DNA of 64,000 bases from Catajapyx aquilonaris (lineage: Eukaryota): assembly GCA_000934665.2 (NCBI GenBank), contig KZ538186.1, forward strand, positions 1 through 64,000, read 5' to 3'. Position 1 is the first letter of the stretch; each line of letters starts with the position of its first letter. This document shows positions 4,221 through 64,000 of this stretch, piece after piece. The notes beneath the pieces were generated by a model that was not told the DNA's origin, did no database searches, and saw nothing but the letters and a program-made list of their open reading frames with translations. The position numbers were made by a program, and so were the translations under genes.

Positions 4221-4449
4221 ACCGAAGCAGGTTGGCATAGTGGATAGGGCGTCCGACTGCTAATCGGGAGGTCCTAGGTTCAAATCCCGGGGCCGGCAAC
4301 CCTGACCGTGGTTTTCTGTGGTTTTCCACGGTCTTTCTAGGATAATTCCGGGGTCGCTTCCGTATAATAGGCCACAGCCGCTTCCTTCCTTCCCTATCCT
4401 TGGAGGTTGAAAGGCAATGCTGGGCCAACCTCCTTAATATCAATTATAA
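4221..4449 (+). mobile_element. tRNA-derived SINE, family A
   Basis: A box TGGCATAGTGG, B box GGTTCAAATCC; TSD AGTATACGAAATAT (4207-4220, 4450-4463); second copy at 42217. Confidence 0.9.
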
Positions 4450-4979
4450 AGTATACGAAATATGAAGCGCGATGCTGATTTTCCTCGAAGGCCAATCCAC
4501 TTTGTATGAGAAGACATTAGCGTGCTCTGCTGGGTCACTCAATTATTACTTGCCTTACACTAAGTAACGGAGTGGGTACTTAATTAGACGTAAGTGAGGA
4601 GTGCACTGGCCAAATTAAAATCCGGCTCCAAGCAATGGGCAGTTTGAGCAATAGAGATGCCTGCATCCGGATAAGATAATCAGGAGCAGAGGTGTTAGCG
4701 TCTAAAATTCGGTTGTATTTAACATGGTTCATGCGACGCACAGGAGTTTGTGCCACGAAAACAATATATTTGTGCCAAATTTTCATTACATTCGCTTCCT
4801 GATTTGGGTAGCAGGACACGTATAAGATGCGGGTCTCCATGACAACGTGACGGGCAGTTTCCTGATCCGTCATCATCCATGCTAAGGGCAATCTGGGACA
4901 ATTTGTCATCAGGCCCTTCCGTTTAGGTGGGGACCTCCGGGAGAAAAAGTCAACCTTGCCCTGAAGGTGTACTGTAATT

Positions 4980-5395
4980 AGAGCGCATGACGTCATCCAC
5001 GTCTAAACGGAAGGTGTCTGGACTTGGTGGTGGCGCTGGCTGCCGGGAAAGCTGTCTATCGATCTATTGTAGACTATGGTGCTGGTGGTACGGGGGAGGG
5101 CGGAGGCTATAGGCTCAGGGGAGGGACAGTGTTGCGGGGGGGGGGGGGGNGGGGGGGGGGAGGACCCCCACATCCCCTACCCTTCCCCAACTCTACGATC
5201 AATGGAAGAAGAGAAGGCGTAACGTCATCGCAGACGACAGAGGCTTTTGCTGTAGGTTGCTGGTTGTTTCTTCTCTGGCAAGCTTAATCTTCCGGGCAAC
5301 GTGCGTAGCCGAAGCCACACCCTTGACCTCGTGGTGCGTGGGGCGGGAAAGGTAGTCTGCGTCGCTTGCGTACCGTGAGGATCCACTCGGTGAGT
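4980..5395 (+). promoter_or_regulatory. Candidate SNAP-25 promoter and non-coding first exon
   Basis: Palindromic CRE TGACGTCA 4988-4995, CRE-like TAACGTCA near 5220, G-tract, GC/CpG-rich, strong donor CG|gtgagt at 5389/5390. The first coding exon has an acceptor, so an upstream exon must exist. Confidence 0.5.
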
Positions 5396-8300: not shown

Positions 8301-10028
8301 TTATGGATGCCAGGTAATCTCAGGAAGTCCACGTGCGGGGTTGTATTGAAAAGTGCGCAGTAGACGTTGGAGATTTTATCAGGGATGTTTTAGGGTCACG
8401 ACATTTTTTTTTTCCACCTCCTAATACACCTGAATGACGATTGCGTGCTGGCAGAATTGAGGGCGGGGTCGTGTCTTTGCGGTACAGTTCAGTTCATCGG
8501 GTTAATTATTCTTGGCAGCTCAGGCTGGAATCAAATGCGATTATGGCGACATTTCTGCAAGGGCTAATTTTATGTGTGTGTTTTCATTACGGGTACAAGT
8601 GTATGCGAATTTGTTCGCGTCATTCATTCCAGGCGAATGTCCATTATTTATTTCATGTTATTCGACGATGCAAATTATGACACATTGATTTGATGCGAAG
8701 CGAACGATTCTATTGTGCCGAATCCCTGAAGTATATATTATGAAATATGAGCCACTTTGGGCCTGTGAATGCCAGTTATTTTCTGGAAATGTGGTACAAA
8801 ATTATTTAAATTACGTCGTGATGTATATCTCAAAGTATCGGTTATGCCATATTATTGAGAAACAGTTCTCTTCGAAAGTATTGTATGGCATAGTTTGTGA
8901 AGTAATCTGTTGAACTGCTGCGTAATGGGACAAATTCCGCCCGTTCAATCTGTGGACTCCGGTTAGAATTCCGGAGGCGGGAGCATTTCGGAGTTTGATC
9001 TTGATTGCTGATCGGGAATAGCTTATCTGGCTTACAGGACGGAAACACACGAATCCGTTCATGCTGGCAGAAAACCCGGCCAAGAGAAGCAGAATTCTCA
9101 TTCCCTATCTGACTCACCCTGCCTGAATAAAAAAAAAATAGTTGGAAAATACACTCCTCTCCGCTTCCATGCACACTGCAGCCAAAATAGGGGTAACGAA
9201 TGGCTATACAACGCTGTTTCTGGAGGGGATTATACGCTAATGCACTTTCGCCGCCATTATGTGGCAAAGAGGCGAAAATAGTCCGGAACTGAATTAATTA
9301 CCGCTCGGTCCTGAAGTAGGCAAAAATCCCACGTAACCCTCACGACCCTAAAACTGGAGAGGAACGGTGTATCTTGGAAATCCAGTGTGCCCAGCGAGGC
9401 AGTCATATATGCATAAAGCGTGGCCAGTGAGGCTCGCAAGTTTTATGAGCCACTAAAGAGAATTTAGGAGCGTGGTCTTTCCGATTGATTGCTGTCCGAA
9501 GCGCTTTTGCTAGAGCCTATATGCACCGGAGGCAGGAAAACGATGGACCTCTTCTGGAAGCTGATCGGGGAAGGGCCTAGGCTAGCAATATTCGGCCGCT
9601 TCAAATGCCCAAATTCAGTTCCAACCTGGAAGCGCTAGGAACAAAGTTATGGGGGGATGGTAGACTGCCTAAGGGTAAAGGTTACATCAAGGTAATACCG
9701 TCCGCCCTCGGTCATGTTTCAAGTTCGATGACAACGTCGGAAATGGCACGTAGTTATTAATGAGTATAATGACTAGAGAACGGGTTTCTATAGGCTTTTA
9801 CCTACTTTTTAATTTTGTATGCAGAACACTGAAAACCAAATATGTATCCGTTTCATAAGACAAGGACCTCAAGAATCGTAGTTTTATAGACTCTCAAAAT
9901 GCCTATTTCGACCTTTTTGACGCCGCGCCGTTTTGTAAGATTTTCGTTCAAGGAATCCCTCCCACTTCAACCTGTGACGAGCGAAGAAGCGGTTGATGTG
10001 TATAGGATCCCGGGTAATAAGCCTTTAA

Positions 10029-10443
10029 GGGGTCGTCCATATACCACGTGACAGTTTTGGGGGGAGGGGGGGGTCGGCGAAAATTCATGTGGTATCTCTG
10101 AACACAGTGAAGTGGCACATATGGGAGCTTTTGCAGATGCACATGGGTTCAAAATAACCTAAAACTCGAAATCAGCGACCCCGAAAACATGGGGAGACAT
10201 GTTTTTTACGTCCTTAAACAGTTTAGGTGAGGAGCTATCAATTTCGATCGCGTTTTTTCTGATAACATTGACATTTTAAAAAAAACACGTGAAAAAGGGG
10301 GGGGGNNNNNNNNNNNNNNNNNNNNNNNNNNNNNNNNNNNNNNNNNNNNNNNNNNNNNNNNNNNNNNNNNNNNNNNNNNNNNNNNNNGGGGGGGGGGGTC
10401 AAAAAGTGCCCGAAAATCGGTCACGTGGTTTATGGACGACCCC
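10029..10443. mobile_element. PIF/Harbinger-type MITE (contains an N gap)
   Basis: TIR GGGGTCGTCCATA.ACCACGTGAC, TAA on both flanks. Confidence 0.8.
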
Positions 10444-10773
10444 TAACCGGTATTGCGACTCGAAAGAACGGTTATTAATAGCCGTTAAATAATCTGCTAC
10501 ATTCGGCCCGACGGCTATTGTATTGGCCGTATTGGCTCCCTGTGAGGGAGGATCTTCTAACTGTCGCCGAATAACTGTGATTAACCAACGAAAATATGGA
10601 ATAACTGCTAGTTTGTTGCTGTGCTGCAAAATTCCATGGCCAAAAGTAGGCTGTGGAAATTTTAATTTAATTATTAAAATAAATTAGAACCAGCTTGATT
10701 TTTTTACCGCCTATTAAGAGCCTATTTTGACTGTTTTCAGGGCCTAAATACCTACCTATTTGAGGCTTTTTAA

Positions 10774-11055
10774 CCCTGGAACCGTGCCGTGGGGTCTTTT
10801 TGGACCCCAAGGAATTAAAATTGATTAAAATGATGATTACAATGAACCTTTGCCAATTTTTTACGGTATATAACAGGAAGTGCATGTTGATTTTGAATTA
10901 GCGATCATTTTAGGCATTGTTCAAAGAATGATTGCATATAGTCAATACATTGAAAAGTATTATATAAAAACTAATAAAAATTAAAATATGGATGGGGTCC
11001 GAAAAGACCCCACGGCACGGTTGCCGTAACTTTCAGGCACGGTACGGTTCCAGGG
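10774..11055. mobile_element. piggyBac-like MITE
   Basis: TTAA|CCCTGGAACCGT...ACGGTTCCAGGG|TTAC; subterminal inverted GTGCCGTGGGGTCTTTT. Confidence 0.7.
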
Positions 11056-12151: not shown

Positions 12152-13590
12152 ATATTATTGATAGTCCTATGCAAGGCCCATGATGATGTATTGGCGGGAC
12201 TTATGCACCCTATAGGTCGCATCCCTGGCGAGAAGGTACAGAACCAGTTATTAGGAATGAATAATTATTGCACGAATATTAAAAGTAACCGGGGAGGGAC
12301 TGCTGCTTGGCGTGTCATTCAGATCATTCTGTATGGCGCAAAGAATCCTGCAGAACATCAGTTCGGAATTGATTGGTTTTCGTATGGAAAATTATGGAAT
12401 TTTGCCCTGGAGCTGATTTGCATGTCGAATCACTTTGCATTTGTTAGTGATCAACTTGATGAAAATGTAGTAGAAGCGGCCTTCAAATTTTCAATTGTAA
12501 TTTTTTTTTGCAATTTTAAATGACAAAGCTCACCCCCGTTTTTCGCCTACGTTCATTCTTGAATATGGTCGGTTGGAATTATGAATCCCCCCTTTTCAAA
12601 TGGGGAAGTAGCCTTCATTTTGGAAACTACATAATAAATTCGCCCATATTTTTTGGATTTTTTTGGCATATTCCGTTTTAAGATATCAGTTTCAGTTCCG
12701 GAGTAATTGGGGTTTTTATGTAGGGAAATGGTGACGTCACTGTTTCCCTAGAAAATGTTGACGTCACGCGAAGTGAAATGAACGCAAAAATGGTGTTATA
12801 GAACGCGCCCCGTCATTGTTGTAAAATGCTTCGCTGTTGTTAGCAACCGTCCCATTCCGTGAGCAAGATAGCGGCCGGGGCGCGTATTTATTCCAGGCCG
12901 CTCAAATCGCTTCTGGGCTGACAGTGGTGCCAACTGGTAGGAATTATCTGTCACCCGAATTCGGCACAAGAAGATCCCTTTTCTCCACCTCGATGGCCTA
13001 CAGCCGCCTTGCGAATGCTTTCCGTCGTGTCCGCGGTTAATTCAAAGTCAAATTCCTCATATCTCGCAGTCAACCAGGCATTTCAGAGTACCCTTTCGAT
13101 TGGCACCACCCGGCTGCCCCGTTTTTCCCGCCAATTTTGAAGGCACTTTTAAATGTGCCGTAATTTATCCAGTAATGTCATTTTGATGCAACAAAGTGAT
13201 GGAATGCATGTTTACAGGCATGGGCTAGCTAGTTATGAACAAAAATCCCAAATCCCAGACCAAGGCTACTTCCCCATTGTAGGTGCTTTTTGATGAATCT
13301 GAGCATCTACGAAACTGTACAAATAAATCATTATACTTTTTATCTTGGCAGGATGCAAAAATTTTAAAAATCACATTTGAACTAAGTTCAAGACATAACC
13401 TGACATAACAAGACCTGAAAATGTGCAAGATGCACTGCGATAGTATTTCTCTGCCCTCAGTTTGTCAAATTGAGCCTCTTGTTTTTTTAAGCAGGCTCCT
13501 TAGTACAGCTAGGCGATATTGATTATTGAGAATATACTGTAGCTTCGTCTGATTGACAAAAGTTGTTGTATCGGCCCACTTCATTATATA

Positions 13591-41400: not shown

Positions 41401-44400
41401 TCTGGAGAAAAGCTGCTTAGTTCGCAGACACCTGCATCATAAAGCATAATGTATTACCTTTTTGTAGGGGTGACTGACACATCATCTCCGGTACTGCTTT
41501 GTACAGGCACTTCAGCAGCCTCTGATGATGTGGAGGTCTGGTTGGTATTGAGGTACCGCAGAACCTCATAGTTTATCTTGCTCGAGATCTTCTTTTCTTG
41601 CAACATCTTTTCTATAGCTTCTCCTGCCGAGTTAGCTTGAAAGTTCTTTTTCTTCTGAGGTGGCCTCCGCTTCTTCTTTTCGGGCTTGCCTTCCAGTTTT
41701 TCCTTGGCCAACTTGTCTTCCTTGGCTTTTTGCTCGAGAATGTAAGCTTCATTCAGCTTGTTCCACAGACCTGTCTTTTGTTCTATCTCCTCTTCTGTCA
41801 TTATGTATGAATCAATCTCCGTGTCATCTATGCCTTCCAAGCTAATATCCTCATCAACAATCTCTACCGCTTCAGCCGGCTGAGATGAGGTGCTGGTCAG
41901 GCCTAGGCTGGCTGGGCTGGGCCCTAATCAGATAGATTTTATTAGTAACAAGAAATCAAATGGTCACGCCAGCCCCCCGCAACCCCCTCTCCTTTTGCAT
42001 GCGCTTAACGAGTCCCCTATCCCTGGATGTGGTGCACTGGACCAAATCCCATTCGGGCAGACGACTTTTGAACCATTCTGAACCTACCTCAATTGTCAAT
42101 TCCCATTCAGCCCCAGTCCGCAGATCCGAGCCCGAATGTGATTTGGAGCGTTCGGGTCTCTGGCGCATGGATCTGCAAATGGAGCTGAATGGGAATTGAC
42201 CATTTAGGTAGGTTCAACCGAAGCAGGTTGGCATAGTGGATAAGGCGTCCGAATGCTAATCGGGAGGTCCTGGGTTCGAATCCCGGGGCCGGCAACTCTG
42301 ACCGTGGTTTTCTGTGGTTTCCCACGGTCCTTCCAGGGAAATTCCGGAGTTGCTTCCGTAATTAATACGCTACAGCCGCTTCCTTCCGTCCCTATCCTAT
42401 CCCAAAGAGCACAGTAAAATGAAAAGCAAACAGTTCCAGGCAAAACAAACTTCCCCCCTAAAGAGCCGATGGCGGATAATGGGGTATGAATTATTTAGGT
42501 AGGTTCAGAACGAAGTAGTCTGCCCAATTGCAATTTGGTACAGTGCGTCACATCCAGGGATAGGGGACTCATCAAGCGCACACCCTTCACCATAAGGAGG
42601 GACTGGGAGTTGCGGGGGGCTGGGTCACACATGAAATCACTAATTTTGGGCTTATTTGCATTTCACTCATGTCATTCTTGGAAGCTTTTTTTAGCCTACT
42701 TATGCATGATAATAATAATAATAATGGATACCCCGTGAAGGCCTCCTTGGGCCTCTTAGGGGATCATCTTTTCGTGAACCGTCTTTAATCATTGCCTGCA
42801 CTGTGATGGATTTTGATTGTGGGAGGAAACGGGAGAACCCCGAGAAAACCCACGCAAACACAGAGAGAACCCATCGAAACTCTATCCACATAAGAATCCT
42901 CCGTCCGACCCGGGGATCGAACTCGGGATCTCAGAGGTGGAAGGCTGTGGCGCTAACCACTACGCCACCGTGTCACCCTCCTACTTATGCCTGATAGATC
43001 GCACTTATATTAGAAAGTTGAACATAGTGCCTCCAAGTTTCATATACACAATAGTAACCTATAGACATTACATTGGGGAATGTTATTATTTTCTGGACTG
43101 TTCCACCCTGACTCTGAGGATCTCAGCAGGTCTATTCATTTATCAGCTGGTGTAGTGTAAGGGATAGTGTGGTGACGTCACAGCCCTACAGTCTCCAATC
43201 AGAGCGTGCATCTTAGGTTACACCAGAATAAACAAATGTACTACTTATACTGGTGTCACACCAGTGCTACACTGGCTGATTAACAAAATGACCTTTTCTT
43301 TTTTACTTAACACAGACTGCATGATGCCAACCTAGTCCTTGGGGCATAGTTGGTACTGCAATTATGTCATCTAGTCCTGGAGACCGGAGTGACTGAAAAG
43401 CAGAATTTAATTCTTGTGTGTCTCGCTCTCTGTCAAGACATTCCCAAATGCTAGACAGAGTGCTGTTCATCACAAAACGTTGAGTCAGCTCATGTTCTTT
43501 AGAGATGTCTTCTGATTCACCACCACCTATAAGGATATTTTTACGGATGGTTTTTTTTTAACCTAATTTTGAGAGGGGTCAGCAACAACAACGAGATGGC
43601 AACATTGAATTAAAGTAGGAAGGAGCACATATGGTGTTTCATAACTTGACCGACAAACTTCTATGGTGAACCCATGGATACCAGTAGATCACTTATGCAA
43701 AGGAGTCATTTGAGGGTGTGGTGGAAAAAGGTGATAACCCGCACAAGTATAACTTTTCAGGAGAGCGAATTGAAGTTTGCTTTCTCTTAACAAATCATAG
43801 GGAACTTGGGTTTTGATGTAGTCCGTGTGGCCGTCTCGTGCATGATACATGAACTGGAGTATACCAAACTGTTTGTCATGTCTTTTACATAGTTGCTAGG
43901 TCAGTGGTTTCCAACCGGGGGGTCGCGGGGGGTCGCGAGCCTTGGTTCAACTTTTTTTTTCAATTTCTGTGTCAATTGAACCATTTTTACAGTATGGTAT
44001 GTCATTATGACTGCAAGTAAGTCACTCCATGGATGGGCCGGAAGCGACTGTCAAATGCCTAGTTGTACAGCTGATTGGCACAGTGTAAATGATGGATCAG
44101 TGATCCAGAGTTGGTGTCCTTGCAAAAACATAGGCCTCTTTCACACAAGGCCACCATGGCAGCACTGCCGCATAAATTAGGCGGCGCTGCTCTGGCAGAG
44201 TGTTGCAGATTTGTTCGCCACCGCGGATGTGCTGCCAGCCGAGCCATAGTCTCAAAATGCACGTCTGGTGGCACGAAAAGTTGTATCTCATGTGAAAGGC
44301 TTCATATTATTCAATGCAAACACGTGGCAGCAAGGCCAGCTGGCAGCGCCGAAAATCACCTTGGCCGCCACCAGTATTTCTGGCGCCATGCTGGCAGCGC

Positions 44401-50400: not shown

Positions 50401-51619
50401 TTCATAACGTACAGCATGACCTTGTAAGTAGAGCTGGGTCATCCCATATCTATTCAGGAAATGGCTGGGGCTTGACCCCTTTCGATTAAAAAATAAATAA
50501 TACATATGTAGCCATGCAGAACTTCATTCCAAATCCAAAATTGTACACTCCTGGAGTTATATTTCACCGAGATATAAGCATGACAATCTCAACCATGTAC
50601 ACACACCACCTACATGATATATATCAAATGAAAGGTAATGGACAGGAGAATTTTATGGTGAAATAAAATTTCATCGAATGTTTTATTTTAAATTAGAAAA
50701 AAATTAAACATACAATCTCAATTTACTCTATATTTAGGATGGCCGTAAATCCCCCAACATTTGTGCTATCTGCTTTAAATTTGGGCAGTAGCACTTATGG
50801 TAGTATATACATCGGCCTGTAAAATATGTTCGTTCTAGGTGAAGCAGTGTTGGAAATAAAAAATTCCGAATATTAGAAAATTCACAAATTCGACAATTTC
50901 ATGAATTTTTTTCTCTATGTGGGGCTGGACCGATTTCGGCGTTTTATATATCAATCGATGAGCAAGATCAAGAGCGTTCTAGTGATATGAACATTATCGT
51001 TTGCTGACAAATGATAAGGTCGTGGTGAATTTTTACTTGCCATGCATATTAATGCATATAATCATGGCAAGTAAAAATTCACTACGACCTTATCATTTCT
51101 CGGCAAACGATGATTTACATATCACTAGAATGCTCTTGATCTTGCGCATCGATTGATATATATAACGCCGAAATCTGCCCATCCCCACATAAAGAAAAAA
51201 AATATGATGAAATATGATATGATGATGATGATGCTTATATGCACATAATTATAAATCTTTACTTCGGATATTCACAACCCCCTTGTTTCTGGTACATTCT
51301 TGACATAGGTGAAATATAACTCCAGGAGTGCACAATTTTGGATTTGGAATTAAGTTCTGTATGGCTACATACGTATGTTTTTTTAATCGAAAGGGGTCGA
51401 GCCACAAATTTTCAGAAAATATACTGAATTGACATGGAATGACCCAGCTGTTATTATTTGTAAAATATCTTGTCTGTAATGTCCGAGTACGTGCAAGTTG
51501 AACAGAAACGAATCTGATAGTGGTGAAGGGGTTAAAACTCAAAAATATTCCATTGCGCTCTCTTCTGGGTAAGATATGTGGCTTGACCCAAGCTATAAGC
51601 GAACAATTTGTAAATAGTC

Positions 51620-51656
<37 letters not shown>

Positions 51657-54600
51657 TAACCTTCTTCTGCAAATCTTGCCCAAAGACTCCCTCGAGTCTT
51701 CTTTCTTTGTTTATCCAGCTCCGCTTCTATTCCTTTCTTCAGTTCTAATAGCTCCCCATCTAAGCTCTGGTCGTCCAAAATCTTTTGTATCCTCTCTCTG
51801 TCCTTCCTCCGTGCTGCCCTAAAGGCAGGCGGATCTTGTTCCTCTTCCAGGTCCACCGTCATAAATTCATCTAGGGTCAGGGCAGAGGTAGGAGTCTCCC
51901 CAAACTCAGACAAACGCTTGCGAATAGTGGATTCATGCACCTTCACAGTCCTCACTGCATCAGAAAGGGCACAGTTGAACCCATGCAAGCGGCCTGCAAT
52001 GATAAGGGCAGCACCGCAAAGACCAGCAGGACGACGCCCAATATGCATCCAATCCTTCTTGAATCGCAGGAGAAGGCGAGATGCCGTGTTGGTCACCTCA
52101 TGCACTTTTTGTTTAAAACCCATCTCGTGAGCGAAGCGTAAGATATGGACACATGGATCTGGAAAGATAAAGAATGCCACTGTCAGATTCTAAAGGACCA
52201 CATATGTCATTTTACACCAATTCCTTTTACCGAACATGAGAAAAGCATCAGTATCCTGTAATACTTTTTAAACCAGAGAGTGAGTGCAAACTGGGACATA
52301 TAAAGACAGTAAAATACAGGTTTGACACCAACTTCATGGTATTTCCACAATACAGTGAAACCTGCCCATTAAGGACCCTGGGTGTAGCAGAAACCTATCC
52401 ATTGCGGAATTTTTTCAGGGAAAGGGCATATCTGGAGCCTCATGTAAAAACCATGTATCTCTGATTTGGCCATTTTGAGATATTGCACCTCAAAGTTCGT
52501 GATCTGCCATTAGTTCTTGCATAAATCATACTTGAAAAACTTGAATAACTTTGCAGGAAAACAAGTTAGAGAGACGTGGTTTGTACCAGTGGATAGAGCT
52601 TGAAAAGACCCGTCCAATTGTGGCCTACCAGTAAAAACCCAGTATCTTGAGTTACATGGTTTTTACATGAGGCTCCAGATATGCATAGGGCATGCAATGT
52701 ATTTTTTGACAGATATAATGAAACCTGCCCAACGCAGAAAGGGAAGGGATTTTTGTCTCCCTTCAAAGAAAATCCCTGTTCATAATGGAAATCAAAAAGT
52801 TCACATTATCGCCTGCGAGTCACAAAACCAGAAACTACAGCCGGGTTCACTCCCGACCCTCCCCGAGGTCTCTTGAGTAACCCTTTTTGGACTGTCCTTT
52901 CACCATACTGTGTTTCCTAATTGCTGGAATTGCCATCGGCCAGTGGCCATGAAGATATTTCAGAGGAACAGGGACTATTTTTGGTTGGAAAATGGAGATG
53001 TGGCTTGTTGGGGGGTGGCCAAGAAGATTGTGACTCGTGATTCGTAGGTGCCTTGTCTTCAAGTTCACTGTTCAGTCCAGTTTTTAAATGTCGGGGAAGA
53101 GGAAGGGGTGACACAGGCTCAACGCATTGCTCTTCTCCGGGCAGATGGTCCAAAAGAGCAGGCAAAAATTAATTGCCCAAAAACTTGGTATGGCAAAACT
53201 TACAAGGGAATGATCCGCACCAACATGTCACCGATCGGACCCAAAATTACGTGGCTGGTCAATTGCAGGCCAGGTATGAATATGTGAAAGTGACAACCGT
53301 CACTACTCAAGCATTGTCGAGTAATTAGCAATTACAAGTGGCCCCGTAACCAAGGCGACGGGGATAATTGGCGAATTGGAACGTAATAAACAAGTCTAGG
53401 TCGAGTGGCCCTACTGGCCCAGTTGGTAACGCTGCTGTTTACAGATCAAAGCACGGTCTTAGAAGATCAAAGGGTCATAGGTTCGAGCCTCGTCGGAGGC
53501 CAGTTTCCATTTTCGATTTTTTTTTTTCTTCCCCCTCCCCTTTTTCTTTCGTCTTTTTCGTGTTTTTCTTCGTGTCTTTCTTTTTTACTCCCTTTCTTAT
53601 GTCTACCAGGTATAATTTCTTGACTCTCGCAAACAACCGACAGAAAACTTGCTAGATTTTTCTTTTCCTTCTCACTCTACATATCTATAGCAGTATAGGC
53701 CATTCGGTAACACTTTTTGGCACTCGGGCCGAAATGTTACGTCAATTACTGCCGCGGGTATAAGCCAAGTGCCTGTCCCGCTCCCTATAGTAGCCTACTT
53801 TGTTATGGGAAGACGTATTAATTTGTAAGTCCCAACCAAGCAGTCAATGAATGGTACGGCGTACAGGTCTTTCCCTCAACAACGTGGTGGACCAGATGAA
53901 AATGATGGATGTAGGTATTGTGTAACTTCCACCGCTTCCCTGTGACACTGTTGTTTTGGGCATCCCGCGAATAAACCGCACTATAGGATAATTCGAAATT
54001 GAGGAAATGCTAATACACAGCAAGACAATTTACCTTGTCATTGCCTCATTTACAGCTGCTGATGCGCATCCATTATAATTTTAGCCATTTGCTGTTCAGA
54101 AACCCTGAGAAGAGGTTGAAGTTGACTTCTGTCCTTTTATTCGTGCTTATTATTATCATCTCACTTCAATCAGGCAGGAACAGTGAGCTATAACTCGTCT
54201 GCTACGACCGGCTATACCTTGTGACCTGTGAGGGAAAGACCTGTACGCCGTACCATTCATTGACTGCTTGGTTGGGACTTACAAATTAATACGTCTTCCC
54301 ATAACAAAGTAGGCCACTATAGGGAGCGGGACAGGCACTTGCTTATACCCGCGGCAGTAATTGACGTAACATTTCGACCCGAGTGCCAAAAAGTGTTACC
54401 GAATGGCCTATGCTGCTATAGATATGTAGAGTGAGAAGGAAAAGAAAAATCTAGCAAGTTTTCTGTCGGTTGTTTGCGAGAGTCAAGAAATTATACCTGG
54501 TAGACATAAGAAAGGAAGTAAAAAAGAAAGACACGAAGAAAAACACGAAAAAGACGAAAGAAAAAGGGGAGGGGGAAGAAAAAAAAAAATCGAAAATGGA

Positions 54601-57600
54601 AACTGGCCTCCGACGAGGCTCGAACCTATGACCCTTTGACCTTCTAAGACCGTGCTTTGATCTGTAAACAGCAGCGTTACCAACTGGGCCAGTAGGGCCA
54701 CTCGACCTAGACTTGTTTATTACGTTCCAATTCTCCAATTATCCCCGTCGCCTTGGTTACGGGGCCACTTGTAATTGCTAATTACTCGACAATGCTTGAG
54801 TAGTGACGGTTGTCACTTTCACATATTCATACCTGGCCTACAATTGACCAGCCATGTAATTTTGGGTCCGATCGGTGACATGTTGGTGCGGATCATTCCC
54901 TTGTTAGTGTTTCAAATGGGTGGCTAGAAAGTTTCTGCAATAGGCACAGAATTTCGCGGAAAAAAGTGTATGGAGTGTGTGTGTGGTGGACTGATTTTGC
55001 ACCATATTGAAGTTAAGGTGAATATTTTCTCTCTGCCCATTTTCCTCTGTTTCTCACCGGCCAAAAAAAAACTTAGTAACTTGATCTGAATATAGCGGAA
55101 ACCTGTCCATTACGCCTTACGGAAAAAATTTTTAGGGTCCCGTGCGATTCGGTAATACACAGGTTTCACTGTATTAACAAATATAGGGCGTTCCAATATT
55201 TTGGTTCATTTAGTTATAGGAAATTTATTTTACACTGTGAAATAATGTACTGGTCACTGTCCGTAAGCAAGAATAAAATAAACCAATGCAATTAGGCAAG
55301 TGAAGGTGCACCAGCCAGATTGAAAAGCCCGCTGTCCCCCTTCCCCTCCTGGTGCTCCCATTGGCCGCCCACATCCCTTCACATACGCGCGCACAAGCAC
55401 CCTTCCAATCGAAGTGGGTGGATGTGAAGGGTGTTGTGGGGTGGGGTGGGGTCGGGGGTGGTGGGGATGGATTTCCCTCCTACCCACTCCTATCCTCCCA
55501 GCCTCCCCCGTCCACCCACCCAAACCCTCCAAAATGGCGTCTCATCTGAAGTTGCATAGCAGTTGAACCCTTTCCTTGCACGTCTTCTTGGACCCCCCCA
55601 ACCTAGTCCCCGATCCACGGAGCCAGGACGTGCGTCCCCCGTCTGGTGGTGGGCTGGGACGCGCTGTTCGCCGCATGTTTTCGACTGGCTAGCAGGGCAG
55701 TCGCTGAGGCCATGTCCAACCTACACATGAAGATGAGCAGCGGGGCCAAAGGAGGCGGAGGAGGAGGCACACAGACGGTGGGGAACACCAACAAAAGTCG
55801 GTTCCAACAGCACCAGACCAACCAGCAGGGAGGTGCACAGCAGGCTGACAGCCTCAACATGCAGGTCACCCAGCAGACAGCTGCTTCGTGGGCCAATGGT
55901 GAGATTGCCTGGACCGCTCCTTCCGTTAACCGGTCTGATCAATGGCCCAGATATGCCTTTATGCGAACGGAGCGTAGCATGACAGTTGCTATTTGCGGAA
56001 TACAACTGCACTTGTGGATAATAAATTGCACACTGGATGAACAGTTTTCAAAGTGGGGAATGTTGACAGGTTATAAATTGTGGTTTCGTGGAGGGAATGT
56101 CTGATTGACTAATCCACTTCGGAAGTGTAGGTAACCAGCTCTTCAGAAGCTGGCATCGAAAATATCTGTTACGTGCCAGGTATGAGGTCGTATAGTTCAT
56201 ATCGCAAGATAATCAACGTGAACCCCCCCCCCAGCGCAAATTTTCCATGCCTCTGCTTATTATTGATCAATACCTTATTACCCCACAAACATTGAATAAT
56301 GCTTGCTAGGAAATACTTTTACATGTAAATCTTGTAGCTATACCAGCATGGTTTTGTCCATTTTACCTGAGAAAAATATATCAAATGGTAACCATAATTT
56401 CTTCAGAGATGGGGAGAAACTGAGGGGACTCAGGCCCCACTCCCTTTCCCCCCCTGTCAGTACATGGCCACTTGCCAAGACTGCTCCTGCTCCAGTAATT
56501 CACTTCACAACTTCTGAGATATGGTGTCCTTTCCCTCACTCTGAGCTAGGCTTAATAATTATGAATAATAACCATCAGTTCAAAATTACAATTCACCTTT
56601 AACTTGCAATACTCTTTACACAAGGCATTGTAAACAGTACGTAGCAGTTTAAATGAAAATATCACTTTCTCTCAAGGGAATGGGAAATCAGGAAAATTAC
56701 CCACTCTATGCAGCTCCCCCNCCCCCCCCCCGAGCTCGACATTTTATAATGACAGCACTACTTGTGCAGAGAGAGAGTGCAATGGTATAATATCATAGGC
56801 ATACCAGAGAAATCCAATTTTTGTGGTTTGGAGTTATTTATACCACTAAGGGCGAGTTGTATGAGCATGAGTTAACGTTAACTACGGAGTTAGCTGTTTT
56901 CATATAGACTAACTTCAGGGAGGTGGCCGAGATGGTAAAGTCTCGGCTTGCTGAGTGAAAGGTCCCAGGTTCGATCCCCGCCTGCGTCAGGAGGGTATCT
57001 GACCAGCACCTTGGAGGTGTATGGCAACCTAGCCTCCTGGGTCCTGGGGGACTGCACGTGGCCCGACAGCCAACATTGCACCTGCACAATCCCCAACAAT
57101 CCCTATCCCTACCTCACATCCCGAAGTCTTTGCATGGAGATTGAAGGAAAATTGTACTAAATGGTGATTATCCAGCCCCCTACAGAAGCCATAAGGCAGT
57201 GGTTTCCAACCTTTTACCAACTACTACCCCCTAGACATGTTTCATAAATGTGCGACCCCCCACACCCCTGCCCCTTCTACAACTGCCCCCTTTCCAGAAA
57301 ACATACACTCTGTACGGCAGAAAAATGGTTCAATTGACACAGAAATTGCACCAAAAAATAGTTGAACCAAGGCTCGCAATCCCCTGTGACCCACCGGTTG
57401 GAAACCACTGCCATAAGGGTCATCATGGGGTACACAACAAATATAACAAAATATAGACTAACTTTATAGTTAACCTTAACTCATGTTCATATCAGTCGTA
57501 TTTTTTCTGCTCTATCACCTGGGGAAGTCCAATTAGTCCTAAAGATTCACAATGAGCCAGCAAGCCATGATTTTCAGTCTTCACTGAAACAAGTGCAAGG

Positions 57601-60600
57601 TCAAATCTTTGCTTTGGACTATTTCTAAACTGGGTTTTTTGGACTTGCTAGATTTCACTTAAGTCTGTCCACAATATCTACTCTTTTTCTAAACTCAGAG
57701 GACAAGGGCACAATGAATAAGTAAATGGAAAACACATATGCTTCATATTCACACACTACTAGATCAAATTGTGTGAATGGAAAAGTATTAACTGAGTATC
57801 ACTCTCATATAAACTTCCGTGAAGGCTCAACATTTGGCATGTCATGCCCTCTACCATTGTACCAGATGTGATTTTGACTATGCTATTACAATCTGGTTCC
57901 CAAAATGTGGCAGTCTCTTTCAGAAATGTGAATTATGCAGACTCCAATTTATTTCCTGCTAAACTAATTAAAGTCACGTAGGTTGTGGCACATCCTAACA
58001 TTGGAATTGATTATTTATCAGTAATGGTACAGTCACTATGACAGTATGACCAAATGACTATTAAGCACTCCCTCAACCCTCAGTCAGAGAATGTGACCTG
58101 ATATCTTGCAATTTCTTTATTTTGACAGTCCTCCCGATGAACTCTGGTGGCAATCTTCTCTCACCTTCATCCCAGGGTGGAGGTCACCCCCATTCCCATC
58201 TACACCACCTCCATTCCCGCACTGGTGGAACTGACCAGGACTCGGTACAGGTGACTCAACCGGCCAGTGCTCCTACTTCCCCTCTCTCCTCTCCTCGTCT
58301 TATCGTTTCCACCTGTAGTGCCAGCACCAGCACTGCTGGTACCTCCCTCTCCTCTGCCCTCAGCCCTGCATCCTCTACATTCTCTCCATCAGCTCATCCA
58401 ACCTTAGACCCCAACTGGCAGGCCTCCAAGCCTACCATACGTGAAAGGAATGCTGCCATGTTCAACAATGACCTCATGGCTGATGTCCACTTTGTAGTCA
58501 GCCATGGTGGAACAGTGCAACGCATACCAGCTCACAAGTATGTGCTGGCCACTGGCAGTTCCGTCTTCTATGCCATGTTCTTTGGAGGGCTGGCAGAGGA
58601 CAAGGACGAGATTGAGGTGCCTGATGTGGAGCCATCTGCCTTTCTTGCGCTCCTCAAGTAAGATCGTCTGTGTTTCTGGTGTCAGGTTATTCTGAAACTT
58701 TTATGGTCAATAACTTCAACATTTGTTCTCAGCTGAAGTCTAATGTATGGTATGCTTTTATATCATTCCAGTAATTTAAAAGCTGCTACAGTGCCCTTTT
58801 TTGAGTGGTATTTTGTAATTCTAAGGCACTTTAAATTGTAGCATTTTAATAAATGTGGTGGAAATAATATCCGTGCTGAGAAAATTGCCACCTCACCAAT
58901 TTTCTCTTCCTTTTGGATATGCAGTTTGTTCCGTATTGAACAGCTTCAGATGACTCATGGGAAAGCCAGGTTTCTTGTGTTCTAGGGTAGGGTAATCCAA
59001 GTTTCATCCCACTTATTGAACCAAGGGGCCATTGTAATTTACCATTACGTCACTGACTTTGAAATGCGGGTGTTGTAAATCTAGCCCCTTTTCTGATGAT
59101 TTATCTTTTCCAGGTACCTGTACTGTGATGAAATCAACTTGGAAGCAGACACTGTGCTCGCGACACTATATGCAGCAAAGAAGTATATAGTGCCCTTCCT
59201 GGCGAAAGCATGTGTGTCTTTTTTAGAGACGAGCTTGACGGCAAAAAACGCCTGCCTGCTCCTGAGCCAGTCGCGCCTCTTTGAAGAACCGGAGCTCATG
59301 CAGAGGTGCTGGGAGGTCATCGATGCACAGGTATAAATTACTCAGGAGATCCATTCCATTATGTGTTTTAAGAAGTACAAATGTGAGATTGTTTTGAATG
59401 AGTTTTTTACACCAGGGAAATTCAACGAATTTTTGTCTGCAAATGAAATCAAAATCCATGGCGTGTTCTATGTCAGTATGTGGCCAAAATAAAGTTATTG
59501 AATCTAACCCATTGGAGCATGCATTACCCTTCCAAAGTGATACAAATTCAAATTTTGACATTTCACAACTATGATGAATTGTTAAACCTTAAAATTGTAC
59601 AATTGCCTCAGTGGCATAGGGAATCCAAGCTGCTATAATATATCCTATGGCAGTGGAGAGATTTCAAATATCTCAGCAGCAATGTTCCCATCACACTACA
59701 AAATTACTGGTATATCAACAGTTCTCATGAGCAATTTCCATCTTCAATAATCAATTAAATTACAAATCACCTCATGAGATTAGTTAAACAAAACTCAGTG
59801 TGAGTTAAAACCCCAAGTTGGGCCAAAAGCAAAGAAGAAGTTTCTTTAACTGTGGTGGTCACTTGCATTATTTATGATACTTGATAAAATCAGTCTTTAC
59901 ACAAAACCGTCATATAAGCCCACCACAGGTTTGAGCAGCTTGACTGCATTCACCCCTTCCCTCTTCAGGCGGAGATGGCCTTGCGATCTGAGGGTTTTGT
60001 GGACATTGACATCCACACCTTAGAATCGGTGCTGGCTCGGGAGACACTCAACTGCAAGGAACTTGTCCTGTTTGAAGCAGCCATGAGCTGGGCGTCTGCA
60101 GAGTGCGCCAGAAAGGACCTTGAGCCAACCCCACAAGCCATGAGAGGGGTGCTGGCTAGTGCCCTGTACCTCATCCGTATACCAGCAATGGGGCTAGAAG
60201 AGTTCGCCAATGGGGCAGCTCAGTCAGGAATGCTCACACTACAGGAAACAACGGACATCTTCCTGCATTTCACTGCTAAGAACAAGCCCCAGCTCAACTA
60301 TCCAACCAAGCCCAGGGCAGGGCTTAAGCCACAGGTTAGAACTTGCTTCAGTACTCATGGCCAAATTAGTTTCATCTAATGATCTCCATGATCTATCAGT
60401 ATGCAGAGCTCAGTAACATAGTAACATTGTCACTGGGGTCCTTATGTCATGAAATATTGTATATAGCAATATTTGTAACTGTTTTAAATTCACACAGGTG
60501 TGTCACCGCTTCCAATCATCAGCATACCGTAGCAATCAGTGGCGGTATCGTGGACGGTGTGACAGCATCCAGTTTTGTGTCGACCGACGAATCTTCATAG

Positions 60601-62538
60601 TAGGATTTGGACTGTATGGGTCTTCTAATGGGGCAGCCGACTACAGTGTCCGGATTGAGCTTAAATGGCTTGGGAGAGTGCTGGCAGAGGATACGACCAA
60701 GTTCTTCTCAGATGGATCCAGCAGTACCTTCCATGTCTACTTTGAGCACCCTGTTCAGGTTTGACACTTTCAGTCTTGATAGAAACAATGAGATGTTCTG
60801 TTATGGCCTTCAGCCCTAGTTTGAGTACAGTTGTTGGTTTCAGTTTCTTCAGTAATCTCATTTCAAACTTAAAACATTACTTTTCCAGGTGGAACCTGAC
60901 ACATATTACACAGCTTCAGCAGTATTGGATGGTGGAGAGTTAAGCTACTTTGGACAAGAAGGGATGAGTGAGGTCAGCGTTGGATGTGTGACCTTCCAAT
61001 TCCAGTGCTCCTCAGAGAGCACCAATGGGACTGGGGTGCAAGGTGGCCAGATACCAGAGCTCATTTTTTATGGACCTGCACCATCTCCTTCTGCTCATGA
61101 TGATCACTGAATTAATTCCCAGGGGGAAGGGAGGGTTGGCCATGCTTATGTTGTTCACGTGTACAGGTAAATTTTTTCTCCTTCTTTCTGTATTACCACC
61201 GTTCTGACTTTCACCCTCCCTTTTTTGTTATTTTAAGTGTACATAAGTGCGTGTGTTCTGGTGTTTTATCCTGTAGATAATTGTTTTTATTTGATAACTG
61301 TGTAGTTTACATCAAGGTAGACTGGTATGATCAGTTGCAGAACCACCTGTTAGCTCTCACAGTGTTATGCTCCAGGACTTCAGGCTATTGTCTTATCATG
61401 TCAATCTCGTCAAACAATCCAGAGTGGTGGCTAAAGCATGCACGTAGACAGACTAATTGCTCCAGAAAAGCAGACAGCTTTGCACACTTCAGGCAGCTGC
61501 CGCTGGTATAATCAAGATGGTGCTGACATCAGCAGTGTAATTCAGAACAGCATATACCCAGCATATGGCAGCACTGACAGCAGTGAAGCACCCAGCAAAT
61601 TTTTTAGCCTGCTGTATTGTGGTAGTTCTACTAGCCTTTTGGGAGTATAATTTCTTGTCATCATCCAAAACACTTAACAAGTCTTCTTTCTGGAGCCACA
61701 AGCCCAAATCATTGCAAAATATTCTAACTGCTCCTACCTGTCTACTTTGAATATACTAATGGGGAGGGGGGGACAGAAGTGAGGTTGAATACTCTTAACC
61801 TGAAGGCTCAGGACTCAGAAGGGTCTGTGCCATAACTCATATGCAAAAAGAAAAAAAAACACTCCCGAGTTCTTTATTTTCTCCACCCAACTACTTCTGC
61901 ATGTGTGAGTGTGTGAGACGCATGTCTAAGTGTGCATGGGAAGAACTCTCAATTGTAGGGGGAAGCAATACTTCTAGTGTAGGAACATATTGGGAGCAGC
62001 AATTCCCATACTGTACGGTAGCTTTTCCTTCACTCCATGTTATGTTTAGGTACTCATTCCGGATGCAACATTCCACCGGATTCATTTTGGTTTTGTGTTC
62101 GCACTCCTCCTAGAACATATTCATATGTAACCTACATTATGACTTAGCCATGTATTCATAATAAAAAAGTGAGTAGCTAATTCCAATCTATTATTTTGTA
62201 ATCAAGAGAACTATGAGCTGACAGGAAGCAGTCCCTAATATCCACTAAATGGTCATCATTTATTACCTGTACTACTTCATGCATTGAGGTACTCACCAAG
62301 GATGGGTATGTTGAGGCACAGTGCACTTGACAGGCGGAGGTAGGTACGTCCAAGCTCGAAGACATCCACTTGAAGAATGTCACTGAAGTCAAGCAACATG
62401 TGGGGAGTACCTTCCGTGCGGCAGGTGATGTACACACAAGCACCCACTATCAGAGCTCCCTTGCGGCCACGGGTGAGATGGCGGGAGAGAGCCAGCTTGA
62501 AGTAGTTGTACGAAGTGTCAACACAGTGCTGGTTCAGC
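35315..62538 (-). CDS. BRF1: BRF1 / TFIIIB 90 kDa subunit, 5'-partial; exons 62538-62297, 52158-51661, 41923-41458, 35905-35484, 35424-35315
   Basis: TFIIB-like cyclin repeats ([26 protein letters not shown]...[22 protein letters not shown]...[19 protein letters not shown]...[11 protein letters not shown]), BRF1 C-terminal TBP-binding block ([13 protein letters not shown]...[23 protein letters not shown]) and acidic tail. Exon phases join in frame. Zn-ribbon exons lie beyond 64000. Confidence 0.95.
35484..35905 (-). CDS. BRF1: BRF1 low-complexity acidic exon
   Basis: catccag|G TCG CAA...GAT TAT G|gtaagc; open frame with ENGVENVV repeats and VVVESGPV; phases match neighbouring exons. Confidence 0.85.
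35705..35815 (-). repeat. Coding 12/24-nt tandem repeat in BRF1 (ENGVENVV)
   Basis: Repeated ttctccaccccattctccaccaca on +. Confidence 0.85.
36798..38023. mobile_element. Non-autonomous DNA transposon with TIRs of about 95 bp and a nested TIR element (about 36905-37679)
   Basis: ACCCTCCTAAATTTTG...CAAAATTGAGGAGGGT with AAGAAGA on both flanks; inner TTACCTCTAATATTGCGGC...GCCGCAATATGAGAGGTAA. Confidence 0.75.
39226..39920 (+). mobile_element. Internally deleted Tc1/mariner (DD41D/rosa-like) transposon with transposase pseudogene
   Basis: TA|CAGGGTGTCCACAA...TTGTGGACACCCTG|TA, TIRs of about 115 bp; [10 protein letters not shown]...[14 protein letters not shown] / WGYIKDAVF with a frameshift. 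Confidence 0.92.
39966..40412. mobile_element. MITE-like inverted repeat
   Basis: ATTACATAGTTCTAACTCCA...TGGAGTTAGAACTATGTAGT; internal TTCTAACTCC repeats. Confidence 0.6.
41458..41923 (-). CDS. BRF1: BRF1 exon, C-terminal TBP-binding region
   Basis: gattag|GG CCC AGC...AAA AG|gtaata; GPSPASLGL...[17 protein letters not shown]...[12 protein letters not shown]. Confidence 0.93.
41962..42628. mobile_element. Palindromic MITE interrupted by a SINE
   Basis: CCAGCCCCCCGCAAC...GAGTCCCCTATCCCTGGATGTG mirrored by CACATCCAGGGATAGGGGACTC...GTTGCGGGGGGCTGG. Confidence 0.75.
42217..42492 (+). mobile_element. tRNA-derived SINE, family A
   Basis: Head nearly identical to the 4221 copy; TSD ATTTAGGTAGGTTCA (42202-42216, 42493-42507). 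Confidence 0.9.
42712..42979 (-). mobile_element. tRNA-derived SINE, family B (V-domain-like)
   Basis: TGGCGTAGTGG and GAGTTCGATCC boxes; core GCGTGGGTTTTCTCGGG...CCGTTTCCTCCCAC; (TAT)n tail; TSD CCTACTTATGC.TGATA. Confidence 0.88.
44120..44510. repeat. GC-rich inverted repeat element
   Basis: GGCCTCTTTCACACAAGGCCACCATGGCAGC versus GCTGCCATGGTGGCCTCGTGAGAAAGAGGCC. Confidence 0.65.
45348..45641 (+). mobile_element. tRNA-derived SINE, family C
   Basis: TAGCCAAGATGG and GGTTCGATCCC boxes; A-rich tail; TSD ACCAC(C/T)AAGATAC. Confidence 0.85.
46143..47617. mobile_element. Non-autonomous DNA transposon (AATT flanks, possibly Sola-like) containing SINE fragments at about 46480-46715
   Basis: AATT|GAATAGGCAAGACGAG.AAGGGCCCAACTCCA...TGGAGTTGGGCCCTT.CTCGTCTTGCCTATTC|AATT. 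Confidence 0.7.
48929..49543. mobile_element. Old inverted-repeat element
   Basis: ATGCGACGGAGAGGGTAAAA...GATCCTTCC..TACTTTAT mirrored by ATAAAGTA..GGAAGGATC...TTTTACCCACTCCGTTGCAT. Confidence 0.6.
49574..51531. mobile_element. piggyBac-like shell with two nested palindromic MITEs and a SINE
   Basis: TTAG|CCCCTTC...GAAGGGG|TTAA outer TIRs; inner elements about 49670-50431 and 50436-51445 delimited by AGCT. Confidence 0.75.
50140..50392 (-). mobile_element. tRNA-derived SINE, family B (second copy)
   Basis: Closely matches 42712-42979; TSD CAAACATATTCATAA (50125-50139, 50393-50407). Confidence 0.88.
51620..51651. repeat. (CTA)n microsatellite next to a BRF1 splice donor
   Basis: About 10 CTA units. 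Confidence 0.9.
51661..52158 (-). CDS. BRF1: BRF1 exon, second cyclin repeat
   Basis: tctttccag|AT CCA TGT...GAA GAA G|gttagt; ORF 51656..52180. Confidence 0.96.
53407..53502 (+). pseudogene. tRNA-like Pol III cassette in left foldback arm
   Basis: GGCC...GGCCA acceptor-like ends, A box TGGCCCAGTTGG, B box GGTTCGAGCC, downstream T-run; anticodon arm does not pair. Confidence 0.6.
54604..54699 (-). pseudogene. tRNA-like Pol III cassette in right foldback arm
   Basis: Reverse-complement copy of 53407-53502. Confidence 0.6.
55330..55711 (+). promoter_or_regulatory. Candidate BTBD3/6 promoter / 5' UTR
   Basis: Local GC/CpG-rich patch in CpG-poor surroundings, ATTGG (reverse CCAAT) near 55360, YY1/Pho-type CAAAATGGCG at 55530-55539. 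Confidence 0.5.
55712..55898 (+). CDS. BTBD6: BTBD3/6 probable first coding exon
   Basis: GCC ATG in a CpG-rich patch; [11 protein letters not shown]...[13 protein letters not shown]|gtgaga; phase 1 matches the acceptor at 58129. Confidence 0.75.
55712..61110 (+). CDS. BTBD6: BTB-BACK-PHR protein of the BTBD3/BTBD6 (Drosophila lute-like) group; exons 55712-55898, 58129-58657, 59114-59330, 59969-60334, 60498-60758, 60889-61110; about 593 aa
   Basis: [27 protein letters not shown]...[19 protein letters not shown] (BTB); [30 protein letters not shown] (BACK); [25 protein letters not shown]...[18 protein letters not shown] (PHR). All introns GT-AG and in phase. BTBD3 versus BTBD6 cannot be separated (vertebrate paralogs). 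Confidence 0.95.
56916..57450 (+). mobile_element. tRNA-derived SINE, family C, interrupted by a hAT MITE
   Basis: TGGCCGAGATGG and GGTTCGATCCC boxes; TSD ATATAGACTAACTT (56902-56915, 57451-57464). Confidence 0.85.
57197..57410. mobile_element. hAT MITE
   Basis: TIR CAGTGGTTTCCAACC; perfect 8-bp TSD CCATAAGG; related end at 43902. Confidence 0.9.
58129..58657 (+). CDS. BTBD6: BTBD3/6 exon (BTB domain)
   Basis: tttgacag|TC CTC CCG ATG...CTC AA|gtaaga. Confidence 0.95.
59114..59330 (+). CDS. BTBD6: BTBD3/6 exon
   Basis: ttttccag|G TAC CTG TAC...GCA CAG|gtataa. Confidence 0.95.
59969..60334 (+). CDS. BTBD6: BTBD3/6 exon (BACK domain)
   Basis: ctcttcag|GCG GAG ATG...CCA CAG|gttaga. Confidence 0.95.
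60498..60758 (+). CDS. BTBD6: BTBD3/6 exon (PHR domain)
   Basis: cacacag|GTG TGT CAC...GTT CAG|gtttga. Confidence 0.95.
60889..61110 (+). CDS. BTBD6: BTBD3/6 last coding exon
   Basis: ttttccag|GTG GAA CCT...CAC TGA. Confidence 0.95.
   Translation: MEPDTYYTASAVLDGGELSYFGQEGMSEVSVGCVTFQFQCSSESTNGTGVQGGQIPELIFYGPAPSPSAHDDH
62297..62538 (-). CDS. BRF1: BRF1 exon, first cyclin repeat (missing from the ORF track)
   Basis: Minus strand ctccttcag|G CTG AAC CAG...ATC CTT G|gtgagt; [80 protein letters not shown]. Confidence 0.95.
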
Positions 62539-62875
62539 CTGAAGGAGTAAAAGATTTTGAGGGTCTGAGTTACAATGGGAGTGTTTTTTTTGTTGTTTTT
62601 TTTGAAAGCTTTCTAGGACAAAATTGCACTCCCAACAAAAAACATGCAAAATGATGTGCAGTATTCCCCCATATCAGTTGTTTCACCAGCCACAGTGTCA
62701 ATTGCCCATTGCCTCCCAAAATCAGAAATCAATCATTTTGAATTCGTAAATTTCATGCATGCTCATATGCCTGGGAAGCATCATGAATCATCCTTTTGTC
62801 AACTTTTTTCCCCATCTCCTACTTGGACAGACATCCTGTATCATTCAGTGTAAACAACTCTATCAGAGGTAGATA

Positions 62876-63952: not shown

Positions 63953-64000
63953 TATACAGGGTGAAGGGAAACTCGCAGTAAGAATCCTCCGGGTACGACA

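Follow-up and report, generated by a model that had tools for sequence, protein, structure and literature searches.

How old is a gene that sits inside an intron of another gene, and what has kept it there? This question is raised by a stretch of 64,000 nucleotides (nt) from Catajapyx aquilonaris (assembly GCA_000934665.2, contig KZ538186.1, positions 1 to 64,000 of the forward strand), which we call the window, and in which a BTBD3/6 gene lies within an intron of BRF1 on the opposite strand. BRF1 is the subunit of TFIIIB that recruits RNA polymerase III (Pol III). The guest gene, whose orthologue carries the name lute in the fly, we take to be a Cul3 substrate adaptor from the known biology of its family. 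We are highly confident that the nest is ancient and homologous in the animals in which we find it, and it is well supported that it is at least as old as the last common ancestor of protostomes and deuterostomes. Our overall account, that of an ancient antisense host-guest pair kept mainly by entrapment, we regard with moderate assurance as the probable one.

The guest is a complete gene. Five public runs contain the BTBD stretch, none of which is recorded as RNA, and for the run X5 the type is not on record. One spliced X5 contig of 3,023 nt aligns to the window in six pieces (55532-55898, 58129-58657, 59114-59330, 59969-60334, 60498-60758 and 60889-62171), giving a BTBD3/6 (lute-type) transcription unit at 55532..62171 on the plus strand, and a comparison of the contig with the window shows GT..AG ends in all five introns. 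The reading frame opens with an ATG at 55712 and runs to 61110, which makes 1,782 nt or 593 codons with a lone stop at the end. Within this one frame the order is BTB, BACK, PHR, and the domains are spread over five successive exons of the plus strand. The coding part of exon 1 (55712..55898; the exon starts at or before 55532) is followed by exon 2 with the N-terminal region and most of the BTB domain (58129..58657, Pfam BTB E 1e-12), exon 3 with the end of BTB (59114..59330, Pfam BTB E 1.3e-6), exon 4 with BACK (59969..60334, Pfam BACK E 2.3e-5), exon 5 with the first part of PHR (60498..60758, Pfam PHR E 1.9e-24) and the coding part of exon 6 with the PHR end and the stop (60889..61110, Pfam PHR E 1.5e-20). 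The whole piece of exon 6 covers 60889-62171, so that the 3' untranslated region reaches to about 62171. The first-pass annotation had recognised the nested gene, and this part of its gene model stands, but it had missed the additional, partly coding exon 1 at 55.5-55.9 kb.

The identity of the guest is clear from sequence comparison. Over 526 residues its protein shares 76% identity with one named BTBD6-B from the stick insect Bacillus rossius, and the best 120 matches are BTBD3, BTBD6 or lute wherever they are named. For guest and host alike the best relatives are arthropod proteins, which by itself marks the window as arthropod DNA, probably that of an insect. In a metagenome scan a separate lower group with 33-50% identity was distinct from the BTBD3/6 relatives. 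Judged by these similarities, the guest is a BTBD3/6 (lute) orthologue and not a remoter BTB-BACK-PHR protein.

The host intron extends over 52159..62296 on the minus strand (10,138 nt, phase 1, GT..AG). It splits the GAT codon for Asp in NIPIL-D-PCVH, between the two TFIIB repeats of BRF1. In minus-strand orientation the donor reads ...AAC ATA CCC ATC CTT G^gtgagt, where the caret marks the exon boundary, the last exon base being 62297 and the intron starting at 62296. The acceptor is ...ttatctttccag^AT CCA TGT GTC, with the intron ending at 52159 and the next exon starting from 52158. The upstream exon (62297..62538, minus strand), recognised by Pfam, tblastn and splice sites, encodes the end of TFIIB (cyclin) repeat 1. 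Its final base is the G of the split Asp codon, its acceptor ag lies at 62540-62539, the Pfam family PF00382 (TFIIB repeat) matches at 62298-62540 (E 1.3e-18), and tblastn aligns it with BRF1 residues ~94-179; a small X5 contig covers 62418-62540. The downstream exon (51661..52158, minus strand) encodes TFIIB repeat 2 and is recognised by Pfam, splice sites and its match to yeast. It opens with the two bases AT that complete the Asp codon (D-PCVHILRF...), has the donor AAG^gttagt, matches PF00382 at 51656-52156 (E 5.6e-17), and in a PDB sequence search aligns ungapped to yeast Brf1 178-280 from solved Pol III complexes; here a small X5 contig lies on 51755-51931. The junction rests on homology and splice signals, as none among the contigs listed bridges it. 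Decapod and damselfly BRF1 proteins align ungapped over it, with residues up to 179/180 ending at 62298 and those from 180/181 starting at 52159.

Since a Brf1-like TBP-binding domain, which has no counterpart in TFIIB, is present further downstream, the host is BRF1 and not TFIIB. This domain (PF07741, E 3.9e-27) lies in an open frame with a BRF1 exon at 41457..41927 on the minus strand, coordinates that are frame limits and not exon limits, and tblastn matches 41942-41538 to BRF1 residues ~387-531. The BRF1 domain was also the sole match when Pfam was applied to 56 long open frames over the window. Among the 120 BRF1 matches listed, identities are ~54-65%, and the named ones are arthropod BRF1 or TFIIIB 90 kDa subunit proteins. 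For BRF1 residues 1 to ~93, which include the zinc ribbon, there is no tblastn match within the window, and the zinc-ribbon exons probably lie upstream of 62538, beyond the window end at 64000.

Taken together, the BTBD transcript (55532-62171) lies wholly inside the BRF1 intron (52159-62296) on the opposite strand, and its 3' end faces the upstream BRF1 exon. An AATAAA at 62160 and the end of the transcript contig at 62171 place the guest's 3' end ~125 nt before the BRF1 donor, and 1,187 nt separate the BTBD stop from the BRF1 exon. Splice sites, Pfam and the X5 contig thus bear out the original claim of a complete BTB-BACK-PHR gene antisense in a 10.1-kb phase-1 intron that splits NIPIL-D-PC.

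The same arrangement is found well outside the window. We aligned 12 BTBD3/6 proteins for a scan of metagenome contigs, which gave 154 pattern matches and 53 loci with a BTBD relative, and in these loci we looked for BRF1 by means of 120 of its proteins and a profile built from its N-terminal 360 residues. An opposite-strand BRF1 exon past the BTBD stop was found in six of the 53 loci (L001, L003, L011, L017, L019 and L021), at 184-806 nt from the stop. In all six the last BRF1 exon ends in ...(I/L/V/C) G^GT(A/G)AG, which is the identical phase-1 split. L011 contains the whole nest, with BRF1 exons on both sides of BTBD and an intron at 7416-10916 of only 3,501 nt, whose acceptor tttcag^AT CCG restores Asp-Pro. 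A plus-strand BRF1 match in a further locus, L030, came from one of the 120 queries at E 0.005 and was dropped as chance. Poly(A) signals near the BRF1 donor, seen in six of seven loci, were likewise set aside as not clearly above a background of 0.04-0.42 per 140 nt, the background density being too high in three loci.

The affiliations of these loci come from best matches and from a tree of BRF1 N-terminal parts with 25 rows, from which L001 and L019 were omitted as too short. L003 falls within the pancrustaceans (99/95), and L001 resembles it closely. The partner of L017 is the clam Mercenaria (99/99), and the BTBD of L017 is 80% identical to a Ruditapes protein. L011 and L021 stand together in a non-arthropod group (90/99). 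In L019 the exon end, ...RELCINAPAI G^gtgaga, is reached 486 nt beyond the BTBD stop, and a vertebrate-type BRF1 matches this exon at 96% identity. Two of the six loci are pancrustacean by tree or best match, one is bivalve, one vertebrate, and two are non-arthropods without closer placement. In L003, BRF1 residues 1-180 form one exon and BTBD is intron-free, and the host intron is nonetheless kept. The sequences L003 1-2727 and L001 1-2234 have the look of a pancrustacean-like, intron-poor genome.

The human locus carries the nest as well. A variant entry in PMC12052365 gives chr14:105249697 C>T as c.642C>T in BTBD6, where it is coding and synonymous, and the same base as the intronic position c.544+2810G>A of BRF1 ENST00000547530.7 on the other strand. 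Because BTBD6 c.642 equals BRF1 c.544+2810, human BTBD6 lies antisense in the intron after c.544, and because 544 = 3x181+1, this intron is of phase 1 and falls in codon 182. A second human BRF1 transcript gives c.463+2810 for the same base in that entry (PMC12052365). The difference, 544-463 = 81 nt or 27 residues, equals the 677-650 isoform gap (PMC4315290) and supports the standard numbering for c.544.

Whether codon 182 is the codon split in the window can be judged from four BRF1 disease residues, R223 (c.667), S226 (c.677; Ala in yeast), T259 (c.776) and P292 (c.875) (PMC4315290). Counted from the Asp, the offsets +41, +44, +77 and +110 of the translated window exon are occupied by R, A, T and P, and those of vertebrate-type BRF1 proteins by R, S, T and P. 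The human residues fit these offsets only if the Asp is residue 182. We infer by this chain, and not by a direct reading of the human protein, that human codon 182 is the window's split Asp. The PDB sequence search matched yeast Brf1 and archaeal TFIIB but no human BRF1, and look-ups of BRF1 representatives and clusters gave fish, opossum and an unnamed vertebrate-type protein, the human one not being found among them. The vertebrate-like L019 exon, ending ...INAPAI G^gtgaga, agrees with the residue anchors. The earlier suggestions that human BTBD6 is antisense in BRF1, and that it occupies the intron at the equivalent codon, are both upheld as far as the published variant entries and the residue anchors reach.

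The geometry of the human locus at 14q32.33 is like that of the window, with BTBD6 antisense in a phase-1 intron and its 3' end towards the upstream BRF1 exon, as far as the entries of PMC12052365 show. If the acceptor given for ENST00000546417 (c.104-8283) is taken to be the canonical one, which we assume, the human intron measures ~11.1 kb against 10.1 kb in the window. Two differences exist. Several of the human BRF1 transcripts have their annotated starts at or close to the 5' part of BTBD6 (PMC12052365, same entries), no such starts being seen in the window, and vertebrates have a second copy, BTBD3, outside any BRF1. Mutations in human BRF1 cause cerebellar-facial-dental syndrome, with isoform-specific effects (PMC4315290).

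Gene models of other species bear the trace of the same intron. Homology is lost exactly at the split codon in 14 of the 120 listed BRF1 matches. The residue at the codon in these broken models is D in eight, N in three, Y and H in one each, and absent in one, which starts at Pro. D, N, Y and H are encoded by the four NAY codons, which fits a phase-1 boundary with a wrong upstream exon joined to it. Such models come from moths, thrips, Timema, a sand fly, a weevil and a tick; a partial BRF1 of Lottia starts at the Pro after the codon, and two fish models break there too. A protein of 962 residues from Chilo suppressalis (P0072) has reverse-transcriptase and DDE-transposase domains fused to BRF1 from the split codon (Y-PCLYILR), and this fusion suggests transposons in the same BRF1 intron of that species. 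Among 146 BRF1 cluster representatives, 11 start at MRFA/MRYA, six residues past the split Asp, and nine start at M/VTA(L/M)RL, ~24 residues past it, one of them from opossum. These short proteins may be genuine isoforms that start within or behind the host intron, or else they come from broken models. There are indirect signs of linkage as well. Both protein lists name 15 species, and in 10 of them BRF1 and BTBD are on contigs of equal length, for example one of 251,554 nt in the sand fly.

The window intron contains repeated DNA in addition to the guest. A block at 52248..55239, without assigned strand, fills most of the space from the BRF1 acceptor to the BTBD promoter and has a word depth of ~420-1,860 in the DNA run X1, compared with ~28 for the BTBD exons. 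Within it lies a foldback, whose inverted arms (53195-53878 and 54229-54911) contain stretches of 571 and 113 nt that are 98-99% complementary around a core of 350 nt. A multi-copy element has inserted here, between acceptor and promoter, and when the block is excluded, ~90 + 290 nt (~380) are left between the BTBD transcript start and the acceptor. In BTBD intron 1, the X1 word depth at 56736-57483 reaches 68,414 in one bin against ~28 nearby, and loose ends are numerous at 56922 and 56984. This repeat is possibly an element like a short interspersed nuclear element (SINE). No tRNA and no Rfam family was found in the host intron, including the 56736-57483 repeat. At the far side of the downstream BRF1 exon an (AGT)n microsatellite (51620-51655, minus strand) starts a few bases past the donor at 51661^51660, and X5 reads seem to be cut at 51611-51663, around this donor and the microsatellite.

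Not every BTBD3/6 locus shows the nest. There are 23 metagenome loci with at least 57% mean identity that reach the BTBD C-terminus. Eight of these have at least 1.3 kb of 3' flank, and BRF1 is present in L011, L017 and L021 and not in L015, L016, L020, L042 and L044. Among the 15 with shorter flanks it is present in L001, L003 and L019; the other 12 are mostly intron-free, transcript-like and uninformative. L016 has no BRF1 exon within 7.6 kb 3' or 3.7 kb 5' of its BTBD gene (3711-9281 on a 16.9-kb contig), nor any other Pfam-recognisable gene in a scan of 83 frames over five loci. It is 99% identical to a Cinclus protein named BTBD3, and this bird locus is the expected free paralogue.

Could BTBD3/6 have entered the BRF1 intron separately in arthropods, molluscs and vertebrates, for instance because this intron is long and tolerant? 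Nested-gene gains are held to outnumber losses in animals, which counts for such captures, and the host intron does take up transposons in the window. However, the intron, the phase, the strand and the geometry are alike in seven independent sequences and, by the published variant entries, in human. The window guest is a multi-exon gene and not a retrocopy, and the compact intron of L011, 3.5 kb and nearly filled by the guest, offers no large target. As intron, phase, strand and end-to-end geometry are all shared, a single ancient origin is far likelier than repeated capture, and we consider independent captures very improbable. Still less credible, to the point of being negligible, is an artefact of assembly or annotation in which BRF1 and BTBD are not truly interleaved in the window genome. 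The window does contain 94 N, and the best of the DNA runs could stem from the source sample itself. Against an artefact, one contig of the DNA run X1 (5,469 nt) is gap-free from 57538 to 62700 and joins BTBD exons 2-6 to the BRF1 exon, although it is not independent support if X1 is the source sample; and the interleaving recurs in six unrelated metagenome contigs. Several observations nevertheless weigh against an ancient nest that has been widely kept. Both flanks are seen in L011 only, the other five loci showing just the 3' half. L011 and L021 are without a phylum, L011 being ~75-78% identical to nemertean, mollusc, brachiopod and vertebrate proteins alike. The position of Asp182 rests on anchors and assumes no indel between residues 182 and 223; yeast Brf1 and the window have none in that stretch. 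L020 (62% identity) has no BRF1 exon within 10 kb 3' or 4.9 kb 5'; it is GC-rich and gene-dense, with bZIP and THAP-domain genes after BTBD (frames 7368-8345 and 12501-13430, both on the minus strand), and a real escape from the nest or a lineage-specific copy is possible there. No BRF1 exon was found within 5.2 kb 3' in the ant-like L042 (90% to Temnothorax), or within 1.9 and 1.3 kb in L015 and L044. Contig sizes differ in five of the 15 species (Gryllus longicercus, Plutella, Penaeus vannamei, Spodoptera exigua and Scylla), in Gryllus longicercus even though the locus tags have one prefix; some of these mismatches probably reflect different assemblies or mixed clusters. With pancrustacean, bivalve, vertebrate-like and unplaced non-arthropod contigs on the one side and the human variant entries on the other, the earlier proposal that the nesting predates the protostome-deuterostome split holds.

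Why has the nest persisted for so long? We lean towards entrapment rather than regulation as the main cause. The guest nearly fills an intron of the essential single-copy BRF1, so that almost any breakpoint separating the two would destroy one of the genes, and the breakpoints that would free the guest unharmed form a very small target. The usual routes of intron loss would delete BTBD3/6 along with the intron. Release would become feasible when a copy of the host is dispensable, as after the vertebrate genome duplications, where BTBD6 is nested and BTBD3 free. We favour entrapment because the intron is kept in the intron-poor L003, because the packing is tight and because BTBD3 was freed after duplication. 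A regulatory coupling of the two genes appears to us possible but rather unlikely. It could take the form of a shared control region, for example a bidirectional promoter at the 5' end of BTBD from which an N-terminally short BRF1 is driven as well, or of BTBD transcription that converges on the BRF1 donor and tunes BRF1 elongation or splicing; if coupling is true, a neural/ubiquitin adaptor is tied to Pol III capacity. In the human entries of PMC12052365, six BRF1 transcripts have annotated starts downstream of a BTBD6-internal base (c.-569 to c.-2695), and these positions therefore place internal BRF1 starts at or near the BTBD6 5' part. The short representatives described above (20 of 146) start shortly after the split codon, which fits such starts, but they may be broken models like the 14 others, and the window exon has no Met at the MRFA position. 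The ~125 nt between the BTBD transcript end and the BRF1 donor, and the 184-806 nt from the stop in the six other loci, would suit a convergent effect. Two human observations hint at coupling and count against entrapment as the leading cause: one expression quantitative trait locus (eQTL) raises both genes in pancreas (PMC8435735), and both genes show methylation and expression that correlate with one tandem repeat (bioRxiv 10.1101/2020.12.16.423078). Effects of this kind are, however, expected of any close neighbours. Vertebrate BTBD3 is moreover free of BRF1 (L016), and L020 and perhaps the ants look un-nested. Of the shared regulation or constraint that the earlier proposal drew from the nesting, constraint by way of entrapment is plausible, and an obligatory co-regulation of the pair is weakened by the presence of BTBD3 outside any BRF1 in L016. 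The strongest version of coupling, in which the nest has been a selected functional unit for more than half a billion years, with a two-way control region and convergent throttling of full-length BRF1, we judge to be quite improbable. If it were true, BRF1 forms without the zinc ribbon and first cyclin repeat would be launched from the BTBD3/6 5' end, and a Cul3 adaptor of neural differentiation would be coupled to Pol III (tRNA) capacity in all bilaterians.

That human BTBD6 lies inside BRF1 is visible in any genome annotation. What is new is that the introns are homologous to the very codon that they split, and that the nest occurs in several phyla. Our literature search found no main text on the evolution of the BRF1-BTBD6 pair, supplementary lists being outside its scope. 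The main texts of the microsynteny survey PMC3514665 and of PMC11694760, a survey of mammalian host and nested genes, mention neither BRF1 nor BTBD, which their supplementary pair lists may name. Gene overlaps common to insects and vertebrates are very rare, and the pair, tied to one split codon in arthropods, a mollusc and vertebrates, would be a second well-documented case beside synapsin-TIMP. The nest provides a clean marker for intron and synteny homology. It also indicates, with the intron-poor L003 as an example, how a guest can keep a host intron from being lost. The vertebrates offer a natural experiment, as BTBD6 stayed nested and BTBD3 was freed. And since BTBD6 sits where, in the available human annotation, internal BRF1 transcripts begin, any coupling bears on how the locus is read in patients.

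The BRF1-BTBD3/6 nest can be compared with a small number of known systems. A survey of five genomes reported three overlaps common to Ecdysozoa and Deuterostomia, all of them nested and antiparallel, of which fly and human have two in common (Solda et al. 2008, PMC2330155). BRF1-BTBD3/6 belongs to exactly this class, of which the main text of PMC2330155 names only synapsin-Timp; the second fly-human pair, given in the supplementary list, may or may not be BRF1-BTBD6. Synapsin-TIMP is like our pair in having an antisense guest in one intron at a conserved host position, from cnidarians and flies to human, and it was duplicated and partly lost in vertebrates (PMC2825198; PMC2330155). Its genes and their functions are not those of our pair, and for synapsin-TIMP a loss in nematodes is documented, as is a guest that has multiplied in Ciona and sea urchin. 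The conserved microsyntenic pairs and genomic regulatory blocks of Irimia et al. 2012 (PMC3514665, main text) are alike in that unrelated neighbours are kept together over phyla and that the bystander genes have long introns. They differ in what these introns hold, as the bystander introns of those blocks contain the enhancers of a developmental transcription factor, whereas in the BRF1-BTBD3/6 nest it is the whole guest gene that is intronic.

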